NCBI GenBank assembly: GCA_037379345.1
Contig: CM074511.1
Span: 8,680,001-8,744,000 of the forward strand
Length of the DNA stretch: 64,000 nt
Direction of reading: 5' to 3'
Origin: Perna viridis
Taxonomy: Eukaryota
Shown here: one piece after another, positions 9,605 to 48,850 of the stretch
Layout of the letters: each line of letters begins with the position of its first letter
Numbering within the stretch: the first letter of the stretch is position 1
Translations under genes and position numbers: made by a program
Notes under the pieces: generated by a model
Seen by the model: only the letters and a program-made list of their open reading frames with translations
What the model was told of the DNA's origin: nothing
Databases searched by the model: none

Positions 9605-11221
9605 CCTCCAGTAGTGATAATATTAGTCTAAAAATCTTAAAAGTATGTGCACCTTATATTGCATCTCCTCTTACATATATTTCAAATAAAATGATTGATA
9701 TGTTTCATACCCACAGTCAATAAAATATGCAAAAGTGACTCCTATCTTCAAAGCTGGTGAAAGGACATCAGCTAATACTTACAGGCCAATTTCAGTCTTG
9801 CCTACTCTAGAAAGGCATGTATCTGACCACATGAATAAGTTTTTTATCTAAACTGTTGCATCCTTCACAATCAGGGTTCACACCAAACCATTCCTGTCAA
9901 ACAGCACTCATAAATATTACTGATCAATAGTTACAAGAGATGCGAAATGGTAATATTACCATAGCTGTACTTGCAGATTTTTAAAAGGCCTTTAATGTAG
10001 TGGATCATGATATTCGATGTAGAAAACTGAAAATGTATCAATTTTGTGACAAGTCTGTAAATTTCCTAAAATCTTATTTAAGTGGAAAAGAACACAACAA
10101 GTAAACATTCACATGGTGTTCCTCAAGGTTCAATTCTTGAGCCTCTGCTATTTGTATTATTCATCAATGACATATCCCTATGTGGTAACAGCTGTAAAAC
10201 TGACTTACATGCAGATGATACTACTTTGCATATATCAGGGAGAAATATCAATGACTTGCTGGCAGAAATGCAAAATGAGTTATTTAATATAGAAAAGTGG
10301 TGTAAGAATAATATCATGTACATTAATATAAACAAAACTAAACTTATCTTAATTGGGACTGGACAAAGATTGTTATCACAAACTTGTCAACCAGAAGTGA
10401 AAATTCTATTAGATATTATAAAAAAGTCATCATGCGAAACACTACTTGGTGTAAAAATTGACAATTGTCTGACATGGAGAGAACATATAGACACAATTTG
10501 TAAAAAATTGTCTTCTAGAATTTATTTGTTGTAAAAAATTAAGTACTTTCTTAGTATTAAAGTGAGGACAACTTTCTATATAGAGTGGATGTAGTAATGT
10601 GAATTTGAATAGAACATTAAAATTACAGAAGAGAGCAGCTAGATGAAACTAGATGCTGACCATACGTCACCCTCTGCCCCATTATTCAGACAACTTGGTA
10701 TTATGAATGTTGACCAAAGGATTAAATATCATAAATATTTGCTTATGCATAAAATGGTTAAAGGTCTAGCGCCAAAATATCTTATAGATAAGTTCTACAA
10801 ATCAGACTTACTTAATGAGAAGTAAAAAAAGACAGGAAGTTTGTAGTCCCAAAACCCCTAATTGAACTTTACAGAAAATCTTTTGAATATTCTGGTTTAA
10901 TTACCCAATACATTATGTAATATTTCAAAGACAAATTGCTTTAAACATAAAGTCAAGCAGTATTTGAGTGACAAGTGATTTGTATATAAACCAATACAGC
11001 TATGTCTATGTATTTTATAACAATAATACATATTTGTATTAGTTACTTTTGTTTTGTTTTGTTTGTTTGTTTTTTTTTTTCCTTGTACTATTTTGTCATG
11101 TTTGTAACTTATGTGGACATAATTTCTGACTCCATATGTGTTGCATGAGGGCCTCAGGGAAGATTAGTTCTTGTAAACTAACTGTATTACCCTCTCAAAA
11201 TGAAGTATATTATTATTATTA
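9605..11221 (+). mobile_element. 5'-truncated, decayed L2/CR1-group non-LTR retrotransposon (RT pseudogene, 3'UTR, (ATT)n tail)
   Basis: Across frameshifts and stops it reads KVCAPYIASPLT, AKVTPIFKAG..YRPISVLP, QSGF..HSCQTAL, DF*KAFNVVDH, GVPQGSILEPLLFVLFIND, LHADDTT, LLGVKIDNCLTWREHID, LQKRAAR and SAPLFRQLG. The 3' end GAGGGCCTCAGGGAAGATTAG...CCCTC is followed by ATT repeats. Confidence 0.93.
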
Positions 11222-42948: not shown

Positions 42949-43054
42949 TTAAACTGTAAGAGCAAAGGTAATCACAACTTATAGATAATAGCATTGTGAT
43001 TTCTTTTGTGTAAAATCAACACAAGGCTCCAATACTTGATTTCCAAATAAATTA

Positions 43055-44125
43055 GTCAGGCTTACTACCAAGAAAAACAACCAGCAAGGCTTATTACCAA
43101 TTAGAACAACAAGTAAAGCTTACTACAGAGTAGAACAACCAGTACAACTAAATACCAAGTAGAACAATCAGTAAGACTCAATACCAACTAGAACAATCAG
43201 TAAGACTTACTACCAAGTAGGACAATCAGTAAGACTTACTACCAAGTAGAACAATCAGTAAGACTTACTACCAAGTAGGACAATCAGTAAGGCTTACTAC
43301 CAAGTAGAACAATCAATAAGACTTACTACAGAGTAGGACAACCAGTAAGGCTTACTACCAACTAGAACAAACAGTAAGGCTTACTACCAAGTAGAACAAT
43401 CAGTAAGACTTACTACCAAGTAGAACAATCAATAGGACTTATTACCGAGTAGGACAACCAGTAAGGCTTATTACCGAGTAGGACAACCAGTAAGGCTTAC
43501 TACCAACTAGAACAAACAGTAAGGCTTACTACCAAGTAGAACAATCAATAGGACTTATTACCGAGTAGGACAACCAGTAAGGCTTACTACCAACTAGAAC
43601 AATCAGTAAGGCTTACTACCAAGTAGGACAATCAGTAAGGCTTACTACCAAGTAGAACGATCAGTAAGGCTTACTACCAACCAGAACAATCAGTAAGGCT
43701 TACTACCAAGTAGGACGATCAGTAAGGCGTACTACCAACTAGAACAATCAGTAAGGCTAACTACCAGGTGGAACAATCAATAAGACTAACTACCACGTGG
43801 AAAAATCAGTAAGACTTACTACCAAGTGGAACAATCAATTAAGACTTCCTAACAAGTAGTACAACAAGTAAGAATTACTACCAAGTATGACAACCAGAAA
43901 GACTAACAACCAGAACAATCAGTAAGGCTTGCTACCAAGTAGCACAATCAGTAAAGCTTAATACCAAGTAGAACAATCAGTAAGTCCAACTGACAAGTAG
44001 AACAACCAGTAAGGCTTACTACTAACTAGAACAATCAGCTAGGCCTACTTTCAAGTAAAAAATCACTTCGACTTACTTCCAAGACAAAGTTGAACAACCG
44101 GGTAGCCTTATTTCCAAGTCAAACA
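43055..44125. repeat. 29-bp minisatellite, ~36 copies
   Basis: Unit AAGGCTTACTACCAAGTAGAACAATCAGT; homogeneous centre and diverged edges. Confidence 0.95.
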
Positions 44126-44930
44126 ATATAAGACACCAATATTATTTACACTCACTTATAACAGCTGGTAAACAGTTACTCTAGAAATTCTATCCTAATA
44201 TTTATCATCTTTGATGGCCTTGTAAAACATCAGATTGATCAAACCGAGTTGGTTTTATTTCATAATTTTCTCAAGAAAATACCAGCATTACATTACAGGC
44301 GATTCTTCTTTGTCATAATTTCCAGGGAAAATCTGAATACTCTATGAAGAAGTAATGAAGTAGTTTGTTATCAACACATCTAATATAGCGTAAAATCATC
44401 ATCAGAACAAAATAATAATCAAGTTGTCTACATCTGATAAAATAATATTTGCCTTTATAAAGAAAATGTTTTAGTTGAGAGGGTAAATGAGGCAAAAAAA
44501 GCTATCCGAACATTGATTGGATTGGCAATAAATATTCCTGTATTTACTAGGAGTAAGGATATATAGCCATTATACTCTATTCTTTAGATGGTATACTGAC
44601 TATTGTTACTTATTTACTGACAGTGTTAACTCCCCTGATTATGCATATTTACTAACAGCCTTATATTTTCTCACCAAAGGCATTTAACATTACCATAAAT
44701 AGAAGCAAATGAAGACAGCTTCACACTTCAAAATTCAAGATCGACTGAATGTAATATATATGCTGCTTGTATATTGGACCGAAGAAAAATAAAAAAAAAT
44801 AAAACAACAGTAAAAAGTGTCAAATCAACTTGATTTTCAGTCTTGACCTCCCACGTTTTATTGATAAACCTAACCATGTAGATTATTTACCTTATCTTTA
44901 GTTTTTATATGTAATTGAAGTTAGTCTGCG

Positions 44931-45451
44931 CCCTGTGCAGGTCCGGGTGTCAAAAGAATAGGCCTGCAGCAGCACTAAGCTTCTCGTAAAAGGCGATTAA
45001 ACAGTGCTCAGAAACCTAGCTGGGGGCTAGGCACTCTACCCAAAGAGCAACTGGGATGTGTGCCCAGGTGGTGGAATGGGGTACCCCTGGCATGTTACAT
45101 GCTGGGGTTGTCTGGCTATAATACGGAAAACCTGACTGCAAACCATAATGGTGCACCGTGTTGGGAAAGATGTCACGTTCCTCGCATGTTAAAGACCCCT
45201 GCTGTGGTATTCGAAAGGAGTAGGAACCTTTGCGCTCCGCCAAAGGAGACTAAATTACCCAACCTTATCCATCCCTCCCTTTTTCTAGTGGCAATCAAAG
45301 TTTATCGACCCTATTATCCTTGTATCCCATCCCTTTTTTTCATTTCATCATCATTTCATGTTCATTTTATCAACCATTTCATGTTCATCATCTGAATATA
45401 GCTGAAATATGGCTGCTCGGACGTTAAACCCCAACAATCAATCAATCAATC
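44931..45451 (+). mobile_element. SINE-like non-autonomous retroposon: structured RTE-type 5' head, Meta/MESC-like body, (CAAT)n tail
   Basis: A GC-rich island. The head is CCCTGTG...AGAATAGG...GCTTCTCGTAAAAGGCGATTAA, the body includes GCATGTTAAAGACCC...TCGAAAGGAGTAGG, and the tail is GACGTTAAACCCCAA(CAAT)4C. It has many hairpins and no + strand Pol III A/B boxes at the head. Confidence 0.75.
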
Positions 45452-45752: not shown

Positions 45753-46571
45753 CTTTCTAATGGTTTGTAACTCAGGGCAAGTCTATTGAGGTTAGATGTC
45801 TTTTCTAGATCTTTTTTTAGTCAAGATAATCTGATTTAATTCACTGGGTCTCATATCCCCTTATCTCTTTATTTTGGTATCAAAATAAAAGTGCAAGTCT
45901 GAGATTCCTGTTAATTGTATATCAATTGAATAACACATGAACAAAATTATGACTTGATACATCTTTCTATTTGTGTGTGATTGCTTTTCAAAATAGTTTT
46001 ATCTCAAACCACCCTAGTAATACCAGTGTAGACAGCTAGTTACTCTTTACCTGACATTTATAATTAATTTCTTAATGTTTAAAAGTTTTGCAACTAATTT
46101 TTGATGTCATAATATCTAAAAACCATCATAAATTGATGAAAAAAATTGATAATTTAAAACCTAGGTAATTGAAACTGCACAATAAATACAATGTGTTCTT
46201 AAATTGCTATGGGAGGAGTCTTGTGTGAGATAAAGTTGAAAACTTCAGCACCAACATGTTATAAATACAAAATAAGACCTGGCATGCATGTAGACAGCTA
46301 ATCATTCTCATTTAAAATTTTGCAAAAAATTATCAAGATGTCTATAGGGTAAAAAAATGCTTAAAAAATGAACACTCAAAACAAAAATCTGTAAAGTGCT
46401 AAGGAACTGATCTATTACACAGCAAAGCTATAAAACACACCACAAAACAAACAATCAGTGACAATCATCTATAAGGAAAATAGTAAACCATAAAGAATCA
46501 CCGATTAACCTTACATGACACAAATATATCTGCAATAATCTTATACTGAAGAAAATTGGAAGATCCAAAAG

Positions 46572-48850
46572 TAATAACAACAAAAGTCACATCAATGACA
46601 CTGCATTGGGGTAACAACAAAAAAGTCACATCAATGACACTGCATAGGGATAACAACAAAAATCACATCAATGACACTGCATAGGGGTAACAACAAAAGT
46701 CACATCAATGACACTACATACGGGTAACAACAAAAGTCACATCAATGACACTGCATAGGGGTAACAACAACAAAAAAAGTCACATCAATGACACTGCATA
46801 GGGGTAACAACAACAAAGTCACATCAATGACACTGCATAGGGGTAACAACAACAAAAAAAGTCACATCAATGACACTGCATAGGGGTAACAACAACAAAG
46901 TCACATCAATGACACTGCATAGGGGTAACAACAACAAAAAAAGTCACATCAATGACACTGCATAGGGGTAACAACAACAAAGTCACATCAATGACACTGC
47001 ATAGGGGTAACAACAAAAATCACATCAATGACACTGCATAGGGGTAACAACAACAAAAAAAGTCACATCAATGACACTGCATAGGGGTAACAACAAAAAT
47101 CACATCAATGACACTGCATAGGGGTAACAACAACAAAAAAAATCACATCAATGACACTGCATAGGGGTAACAACAACAAAGTCACATCAATGACACTGCA
47201 TAGGGGTAACAACAAAAATCACATCAATGACACTGCATAGGGGTAACAACAAAAATCACATCAATGACACTGCATAGGGGTAACAACAAAAGTCACATCA
47301 ATGACACTACATACGGGTAACAACAAAAGTCACATCAATGACACTGCATAGGGGTAACAACAACAAAAAAAGTCACATCAATGACACTGCATAGGGGTAA
47401 CAACAACAAAGTCACATCAATGACACTGCATAGGGGTAACAACAAAAATCACATCAATGACACTGCATGGGGTAACAACAACAAAAAAAAATCACATCAA
47501 TGACACTGCATAGGGGTAACAACAACAAAGTCACATCAATGACACTGCATAGGGGTAACAACAAAAATCACATCAATGACACTGCATAGGGGTAACAACA
47601 AAAGTCACATCAATGACACTACATAGGGGTAACAACAAAAGTCACATCAATGACACTGCATAGGGGTAACAACAACAAAAAAAGTCACATCAATGACACT
47701 GCATAGGGGTAGCAACAACAAAGTCACATCAATGACACTGCATAGGGGTAACAACAAAAATCACATCAATGACACTGCATAGGGGTAACAACAACAAAAA
47801 AAATCACATCAATGACACTGCATAGGGGTAACAACAACAAAGTCACATCAATGACACTGCATAGGGGTAACAACAAATAAAGTCACATCAATGACACTGC
47901 ATAGGGGTAACAAAAAAACATCACATCAATGACAATGCATAGACTAACAACAAAAAAATCACATCAATGACACTGCATAGGGGTAACAACAAAAGAAAGT
48001 CACATCAATGACAATGCATAGACTAACAACAAAAAAATCACATCAATGACACTGCATAGGGGTAACAACAAAAAAAGTCACATCAATGACACTGCATAGG
48101 GGTAACAACAAAAAAAATCATATCAATGACACTGCATAGGGGTAACAAAAGAAAAGTCACAACAATGACACTGCATAGGGGTTACCAAAAATAAGTCATG
48201 TCAATGACACTGCATAGGGGTAACAACAACAAAAATCACATCAATTACACTGCATAGGGGTAACAACAAAAAAAAGTCACATCAAAGACACTGCATAGGG
48301 GTAACAACAAATATTAAGTCACAACAATCATACTGCATAGGGGTAACCACAAAAAAAGTCACATCAATCATACTGCATATTGGTAACTACATGGTTATAT
48401 CAATGACGCTGCATACTGGTAACAACAAAATAATGTCTCATCAATCACTCTGCATACCGGTAGGAAGAAAATTAAGGAGGTAGACCTAGGGTAAGGGACA
48501 AAACTCATGAAATCATTGATATGTTTGTATCATATTCAATTTCACCAAATGCTATCAAGCTTTTGTTTGAAGCAGAATAAAATGAATCCAAGTTAATTAG
48601 ATGCTTAAATAAGATTGATGTAAAATGCGGAATACAAACGTTCCAACGAATTTTTAGAGTTGTGTCCCTTACTCTAGTCTACCTCTTTAAGTCACATAAA
48701 TGACACTGCATACTGGTAACAATTTGATGTCACATCAATGACCCTGCATACTGACTACAACAAAACAATGTCACATCAATGACCTTACATAGTGGTAACA
48801 GGTTCTAGTATATTTCAAGCAGATCAACAGCTCTGCATACTGGTGACAAG
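46572..48850. repeat. ~37-43-bp minisatellite (~50 copies) interrupted near its right end by a MITE
   Basis: Core TCACATCAATGACACTGCATAGGGGTAAC plus a variable (AAC)n/poly-A linker. Diverged units continue at 48691-48850. Confidence 0.97.
48476..48686. mobile_element. 211-bp TTAA-flanked MITE (Kolobok-like)
   Basis: TTAA at 48472-48475 and 48687-48690. TIRs GGAGGTAGACCTAGGGTAAGGGACAAAACTC / GAGTTGTGTCCCTTACTCTAGTCTACCTCT. A second copy starts at 63807. Confidence 0.9.

Follow-up and report, generated by a model that had tools for sequence, protein, structure and literature searches.

A decayed LP-type SINE of Perna viridis with a predicted pseudoknotted RNA head that recurs in LINEs and virus-type contigs and may stall exoribonucleases

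The window, by which we mean the whole 64,000-nucleotide stretch of DNA analysed here, contains a single copy of a non-autonomous retroposon of the LP-SINE type. The features recognized in it, each with the basis of its placement, are as follows.

44930..45451, + strand: non-autonomous retroposon, LP-SINE type, 522 bp (full-length copies, TSDs, count of the core 24-mer)
44930..45008, + strand: LP head, a conserved structured RNA module (alignment with a LINE 5' end, scallop words, model R1)
44932..44947, + strand: predicted pseudoknot stem S1, 44932-44935 with 44944-44947 (pairing across representatives)
44936..44967, + strand: a single U, then predicted pseudoknot stem S2, 44937-44943 with 44961-44967 (covariation)
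44971..45008, + strand: 3' module, made up of an outer helix (44971-44977/45002-45008), a conserved GC (44979-44980) and a core (44982-45000) (conservation)
45015..45140, + strand: family-specific hairpins (predicted folds)
45184..45205, + strand: 3'-end motif of the Deu/Nin SINE domain (matched by eye)
45390..45429, + strand: LINE-derived 3' stem-loop, then UUAAAC (LINE 3'-end alignment)
45435..45451, + strand: (CAAT)n terminal repeat (sequence; the repeat also ends the L409/L410 LINE family)

When the genome was searched with this element, 8,365 first-look candidates were found; the 40 copies scored among them were near full length and, the self-match excepted, showed 91–93% identity. In the genome there are 6,911 exact matches to a 24-mer from the head core (control, 0), which is a lower bound, the window copy itself lacking the exact 24-mer. 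The 5' edge is sharply defined in the 30 copies aligned: 25 of them have a G at position 1, and 25 possess TSDs of 10–18 bp that mostly end directly before this G. The unit of about 520 bp described in an earlier note on this DNA thus stands, but its first base is G44930, not 44931. The 3' ends of family copies consist of (CAAT)n or (CAAA)n, the former being the tail that had been noted and is present here. Tail-only copies also exist, several of them with TSDs. No open frame over the element reaches 150 aa, and in the window copy we could not find a clear TSD.

The window copy is about 7% diverged from the young copies, and five of its head positions deviate from the family majority. The changes at 44934 and 44974 keep pairing (C44934T gives a U-G wobble in S1); G44983C and C44997T fall within the invariant core and T45002C disrupts a pair, 28–29 of the 30 copies having the other letter at these sites. 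The window copy is an ordinary damaged insertion and, with such core lesions, is likely to be inactive. This condition bears on the stems that the earlier note had named. The pairs TGCAGGTC (44936-44943)/GGCCTGCA (44961-44968) and AGCACT/AGTGCT (within 44971-45008) are present, as are the quoted internal loops AAGCTTC and TTAAAC, but these loops hold the copy's own mutations (44983, 44997, 45002), and the pseudoknot 44932-44935/44944-44947, in the loop of the first stem, had been missed. The description as GC-rich is correct for the 5' half only (53%, against 40% in the 3' half and 32% in the window). That half had been depicted as an almost continuous run of stems; in the window copy it folds no better than dinucleotide shuffles (z of +0.35 and +0.31), whereas the near-consensus copy L004 reaches z = -3.07. 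The run of stems is a property of the family that has decayed in the window copy.

A tRNA-derived head is absent, as had been claimed. There are no A or B boxes on the + strand other than loose A-box-like words, which occur only from element position 140, and no B box was found on either strand; ARAGORN finds no tRNA in the window, and none of 110 motif-selected copies with 70–80 upstream bases is a longer form with an upstream tRNA head. The proposal of a chimeric non-autonomous retroposon with a head that does not derive from tRNA holds, the head being a conserved RNA fold that stems from the 5' end of a LINE.

Several further observations concern the surroundings and arrangement of the copies. 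Two unrelated A-rich tandem arrays flank the element at 43050-44083 and 46571-48456 of the window (a 29-bp unit in 36 copies, and a 37-bp unit with higher-order periods in 47 copies). The only frame as long as 150 aa in the window, at 10082-10531 (+), resembles a reverse transcriptase fragment. Elsewhere in the genome the SINE clusters densely at G000:C1:3.33-3.71 Mb and C1:9.8-9.95 Mb (L045, L049, L051), with several copies per 3 kb adjoining LINE insertions of the L410 family, which suggests insertion hot spots in common. In some copies (L501, L514, L076, L083 and L131) the 5' part is inverted, so that the head is opposed head-to-head to the remainder in a twin-priming-like arrangement.

Elements of this kind are already known. 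The LP-SINEs of snails, oysters and scallops are reported to carry a head of about 70 nt that matches the 5' ends of Nimb-17_LMi, I-3_DR and RTE-9_CPB (Matetovici 2016, PMC4758252). By eye, the window head has the same words, in the same order, as the scallop 'Nimb-17 homology' block (PMC4758252, Suppl. Fig. S2); by its listed TSDs, the first base of that block is likewise a purine, placed 3 nt ahead of the stem core, and the scallop element is likewise about 520 bp long. TSDs, a terminal tandem repeat, a mollusc-type tail and a partial Nin/Deu body as in Sgl_LP are further points of likeness, whereas the window element has another body and is without an internal tRNA segment. Judged from these sequence comparisons, it belongs to the published LP-SINE kind, its tail being of the Nimb/I type and its body motif Deu/Nin-like. 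The accessible text of PMC4758252 presumes the LP head to be a promoter, calls for experiments and mentions a parallel with the promoter/ribozyme of L1Tc; neither a fold nor a viral occurrence is given in it.

In the body, the Meta/MESC-like middle proposed earlier is recognized by eye as a weak echo of the 66–95 bp Meta/MESC core in two short stretches within 45086-45123 (against Lsa_1 and scallop MESC lines), but the clearer match is the Deu/Nin 3' motif. The words at 45184-45205 occur also in the BivaMD-SINE1, Tgr_1 and Nin-SINE consensus lines, and the likeness to Deu/Nin is confined to this 3' motif. BivaMD-SINE1, MetaSINE and Nin-DC SINEs, as far as they are described in the available parts of PMC4824008 and PMC11481361, have this motif and the tail in common with the window element, but carry tRNA heads with A and B boxes, which the window element does not. 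The tail shared by bivalves and gastropods is that of PMC4824008, and the available part of PMC11481361 links it to Nimb LINEs; taken by themselves, these modules suggest a mollusc host. Its stem-loop at 45390-45429 is a likely recognition site for an I/Nimb-type reverse transcriptase, on the strength of sequence resemblance.

The LP head itself is, according to the aligned sequences, a covarying RNA fold consisting of a 5' pseudoknot and an invariant hairpin module. Covariation is absent among copies of the young window family, but it is strong across families. In 15 representatives (nine from retroposons and six from viruses), the three core pairs of S1 are formed in all 45 cells, the 5' strand being constrained by an anchor; the changes there comprise one double change (L152) and one wobble (L154). 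The S2 stem of 7 bp, in a fixed register set by two anchors, is paired in 89 of 105 cells, against a permutation mean of 60, and none of 20,000 permutations reached 89. Its loop has a conserved AGAAUA (44955-44960) at its end and measures 12–13 nt in viruses and 15–28 nt in retroposons. In the viral representatives, 41 of 42 S2 cells are paired despite differing stem sequences, and in the retroposon-only alignment A1 five of the seven S2 pairs have both sides changed. Pairing is poor in three of the nine retroposon representatives, and when five representatives were added, seven of the 20 pair just 5–7 of 10 in the fixed register; some of these are single decayed copies and some are apparently one base out of register.

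The invariant core of the 3' module reads UGUCG-UAARAGG-CGAC-UAA (44982-45000). Because this core belonged to the search patterns, it cannot show covariation; a pattern loosened at five core positions returned the same seven viral contigs. Outside the searched pattern, the UG before the core is kept in 20/20 representatives and the GC, 0–5 nt before UG, in 19/20. Support for the outer helix is weaker than for S1 and S2, since shuffle counts vary from 1 to 251 in 500 (8 of 15 representatives). The 5' boundary is precise in four SINE families, where a purine stands exactly 3 nt ahead of the CCG core of S1 and nothing is conserved at -4. The copies usable for this numbered 64 of 110 in G000, 26 of 45 in M1, 8 of 17 in M2 and 11 of 22 in M3, and the metagenome families M1–M3 may be interrelated. 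With model R1 the window head scores 74.8 bits, a value to be read with the window copy having been included in model building.

No Rfam family matched the window region, and in the 12 head-bearing loci and the L410 5' end there was likewise no match to the head, at E up to 10 or 5. The earlier failure to fit HDV, hammerhead, twister or pistol was thereby borne out, all Rfam ribozyme families being without a match. Hammerhead or twister core words occur on neither strand (pistol and hatchet were looked for via Rfam), and permutations of twister were rejected, because cleavage within the core would cost the element its head.

The head is not confined to animal retroposons. A pattern scan of IMG/VR gave nine contigs, seven of which, six of them distinct, contain the whole head, and with R1, which is built from retroposons only, seven viral loci scored 34–60 bits while the others among the 100 searched remained at or below 22. 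In five distinct RNA-virus-type contigs the head lies on the coding strand 6, 10, 23, 74 and 100 nt past the last stop, and 89–184 nt from the contig end (L151, L152 with its near-identical L157, L154, L156 and L158). The ORFs of these contigs include a tetra-like capsid, a toti-like RdRP, a noda-like capsid and a tombus-like RdRP; the ORF of L151 showed no Pfam or PDB match. L151 also has a second, truncated head copy in tandem. The remaining case, L153, is a 212-kb DNA virus contig in which the head is intergenic (1456-1530); there, the start codon of an ORF of 449 aa or more follows the head at a distance of about 215 nt, and the surrounding DNA is very AT-rich. A looser viral pattern gave no convincing new case among the matches listed (at least 120 loci): of the 132 listed, 113 fail the pseudoknot descriptor, 18 are known contigs and one (L282) was judged a chance match. 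L155/L159, L451, L453 and L457 were dropped as chance, having the core only, with at most 22 bits or without the knot.

In the JGI metagenomes, a pattern scan found at least 122 head stretches in 21 clusters; the matches listed are mostly SINE-like copies, and an autonomous LINE behind the head was found in none of them. In two cluster groups the 5' strands are missing although AGAAUA and the 3' module are retained. At L291, L317, L320, L324 and similar metagenome loci, other sequence replaces the 5' pseudoknot strands, and in one such group an apparently inverted retroposon tail takes their place. One metagenome contig has a long perfect hairpin (L304:1714-1872) with sub-threshold Rfam microRNA matches. 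In 596 Gb of prokaryotic genomes (GTDB) only five contigs matched, all in retroposon- or microsatellite-like DNA, and these look like animal retroposon contamination, leaving the head with a range of the eukaryotic type. L460-L463 are likewise animal-like DNA inside metagenome-assembled genomes.

The compensatory base changes argue for a function at the RNA level and against a pure DNA promoter, and so does the presence of the head in 3' UTRs of RNA-virus-type contigs, as these pass through no DNA stage. Such a function is well supported, and taken over the readings that include it we consider it highly probable. As to what it is, we favour a model in which the head stalls 5'-to-3' exoribonucleases and so trims unit-length RNA from read-through transcripts, the window copy being a decayed LP-type SINE; to this reading as a whole we assign a probability of roughly 0.4. 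Host transcripts would run through embedded SINE copies, decay of the Xrn1/Xrn2 type would halt at the pseudoknot with about 3 nt left, and an I/Nimb-type reverse transcriptase would bind the 3' stem-loop and insert the RNA by target-primed reverse transcription, while in viruses the fold would yield stable 3' subgenomic RNAs. Xrn1 has a 3-nt pocket. The roadblock is favoured on account of the placement in viral 3' UTRs, the tandem copy, a knot that would grip the 5' strand and the 3-nt overhang.

Exoribonuclease-resistant RNAs (xrRNAs) are described as lying at the start of 3' UTRs, as occurring in tandem copies and as forming a pseudoknot ring (PMC11702639, PMC8374639, in the parts available); the cases given there are all viral. 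The LP head resembles them in its position at the start of the 3' UTR in 5/5 distinct RNA-virus-type contigs, in the tandem of L151, in being scattered over unrelated RNA viruses and in a pseudoknot that engages the 5' strand. However, xrRNAs of classes 1 and 2 are three-way junctions and in class 3 the loop pairs with the 3' end, whereas the LP loop pairs with the 5' end; the LP head also has a separate 3' module and is found in retroposons and a DNA virus, and its resistance is putative here. Several observations weigh against the roadblock. The fold is unlike both the flaviviral three-way junction and the class 3 loop-to-3'-end pseudoknot, and its loops of 12–13 nt in viruses and 15–28 nt in retroposons stand against 15–16 nt in known rings. 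The most invariant part is the downstream module and not the knot, and this, like the purine at +1, is left unexplained. Seven of 20 representatives are weakly paired, and the two metagenome groups are without 5' strands; one viral case (L153) is intergenic in a DNA virus, and no LINE with an LP head was found in G000.

The transcripts give no support for trimming or for cutting at G1. In the 19% read of one RNA run, 7,365 family reads were found on both strands, and 242 reads with loose ends enter from unlike upstream flanks. The SINE family is therefore transcribed by read-through. No start pile-up was seen among the 7,365 reads, which come from a fragmented library of unknown strandedness. 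The first bases are covered to about 72% (first mate -) and about 75% (first mate +) of the depth of the next bin, and since these values are similar there is no strand-specific step at the 5' end. Most copies are decayed, and the library is poorly suited to 5'-end trimming or cutting.

The main rival, self-cleavage, arises from the LINEs that carry the head or its substitute. L464/L466 (G001:C4:518500-525200) is a 6.1-kb LINE with two ORFs, containing an endonuclease, RT and RNase H, and it starts with the LP head. Both of its ends match the SINE: the 5' end scores 55 (maximum 26 in 500 shuffles), and the 3' end (L465) scores 36 (0 of 2000 shuffles), whereas the tail of the L410 family gives no significance (214 of 2000). 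This full animal-type LINE sits inside a bacterial symbiont assembly. We take its two-ORF architecture with RNase H not to be that of an RTE, and no RTE with an LP head was found among the RT regions examined. The RTE-type head proposed in the earlier note is right insofar as the LP head has been published at the 5' ends of both Nimb and RTE LINEs (PMC4758252), but the carrier identified in the present analysis is a LINE of the I/Nimb type that has RNase H.

The dominant I/Nimb-type LINE of G000 (L409/L410) is related to this carrier: its ORF2 is 52% identical to that of L466, and the 5' UTRs are homologous (score 97, against a maximum of 50 in 500 shuffles). Its 5' end, however, fits the HDV order P1-P2-P3-L3-P1'-P4-J4/2-P2' (double pseudoknot as defined in the available part of PMC4908430), and 10/10 full-length copies begin at the C-run of P1. 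Based on the homologous 5' UTRs and related ORF2, the two heads fill one slot, and the LP head, as these alignments indicate, is exchanged for an HDV-like fold at the same place in a related LINE. The HDV-like fold is located at L409:1943-2089 and L410:1852-1999, and also in L519-L526; the family is young and undetected by Rfam, and I/Nimb does not appear among the six LINE clades listed with 5' ribozymes in the accessible part of PMC5786205. Since Rfam also misses the L410 fold, its silence on the LP head is uninformative as to HDV-likeness.

The L409/L410 family ends in (CAAT)n with a similar stem-loop, SINE copies adjoin several of its insertions, and it is the best candidate for the partner of the SINE. 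In G000, neither another family nor a LINE with the LP head was found: searches with three core patterns yielded 124, 63 and 50 matches, and the 110 examined among them (30, 30 and 50, respectively) all proved to be this SINE. In 28 RT loci and 20 RT regions of ten kb, model R1 returned SINE copies only. Among the best 150 of 858 candidates (30 tails and eight further regions inspected), the dominant I/Nimb-type family has the HDV-like fold instead of the LP head. A tail pattern minus the SINE body gave 22 loci, which look like truncated or rearranged SINEs, and in none of them does a LINE ORF run into the tail.

According to the ribozyme reading, the head is a rewired relative of HDV-like ribozymes that would cut just before nucleotide 1. 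S1 would correspond to P1, the outer helix of the 3' module to P2 and GCY/GGC to P3; UGUCGU would be L3 and GACUAA would be J4/2 with the catalytic C, P4 would be gone and the second P1 strand would have moved into the 5' pseudoknot. In the window copy the putative catalytic C is a T (44997). Like the HDV-like ribozymes of R2, L1Tc/NARTc Pr77 and RTE, the head is a short module at the extreme 5' end that is also found in non-autonomous partners, with a C-rich first strand, L3- and J4/2-like words and the same genomic position; the L3 word and the GACUAA junction before the closing helix are in common with the L409/L410 fold, whose 10 full-length copies start at P1. The head swap and these shared core words make the ribozyme the main rival, and the invariant core, the GC in 19/20 representatives and the precise 5' ends with a purine at +1 also speak for it. 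So do literature reports, in the parts available, that R2, L1Tc and RTE owe their 5' ends to HDV-like ribozymes (PMC5786205, PMC3383444; 5' ribozymes of retrotransposons also in PMC6765202), and that known ribozymes occur in the UTRs of linear toti- and tombus-like viruses (PMC13725137).

However, the LP head is without the nested double pseudoknot P1-P2-P3-P1'-P1.1-P4-J4/2-P2' of PMC4908430, without P4 and without a visible P1.1, and has an extra H-type pseudoknot with AGAAUA. A descriptor of the nested HDV order gave 0 matches in 10 head-bearing stretches, its positive control not being independent because the L410 fold served as a guide in writing the descriptor, and no conserved P1.1 partner was found. 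Between the L3 and J4/2 words a 4-bp hairpin can form instead, and ViennaRNA rates it above the HDV-like pairing (-11.4 and -5.6 kcal/mol, respectively). A purine at -3 is present in only two of six viral copies, efficient cutting would cost a viral genome its 3' end, and the RNA-seq shows no strand-specific step. We regard cleavage by the head as doubtful. Still more doubtful is the wider proposal that it represents a new self-cleaving architecture, derived from a rewired HDV fold, which would be swapped at LINE 5' ends, drive SINEs without a Pol III head and have spread to RNA-virus 3' UTRs and a large DNA virus.

It is improbable, to a greater degree, that the fold serves mainly to bind the ribosome or a protein and to aid translation of uncapped LINE or viral RNA, the SINEs keeping it to reach nascent reverse transcriptase or for stability. 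The invariance of loop and junction bases fits such binding, as do its positions 5' of ORFs in L464 and L153 and beside stop codons in viruses, and translational roles have been reported for HDV-like and hammerhead motifs (PMC13725137, PMC6765202, in the parts available); the fixed 5' boundary is not explained by binding alone, however, and the SINE encodes nothing. Least probable of all is an internal Pol II promoter acting at the DNA level only, with folding incidental, which was proposed in PMC4758252 and agrees with the +1 purine in four families, with the L153 head lying intergenic and upstream of an ORF and with an AATATA hexamer at 45395-45400 like a variant in the available part of that paper, but runs against the compensatory changes and the 3' UTRs of RNA-virus-type contigs. 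A dual role as promoter and RNA, by analogy with Pr77 of L1Tc, is possible.

The kind of element to which the window copy belongs is already published; what appears to be new here is the RNA fold of its head, the sharing with viruses and the exchange with an HDV-like fold. A description of the LP head as a covarying fold common to viruses and exchangeable with an HDV-like one was not found in the literature searched, outside which lay most subscription papers, Repbase and Dfam. Kojima 2018 (PMC5786205), which treats RTE-derived parts of SINEs and 5' ribozymes in six LINE clades, does not include the LP fold in its accessible text.

How SINEs without a Pol III head obtain unit-length RNA is an open question, and the LP head had been named a promoter without a test; the comparison made here turns it into a defined 80-nt RNA with a predicted fold. 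If the favoured exonuclease block is true, xrRNAs would exist in cellular genomes, in which a review, as far as available, lists them as not found; if the head cleaves, it would represent a ribozyme of new architecture. In both cases, a single module occurs in animal retroposons as well as in several unrelated virus groups and can be exchanged for HDV-like folds; its copies within host transcripts, which number in the thousands, could shape RNA ends.
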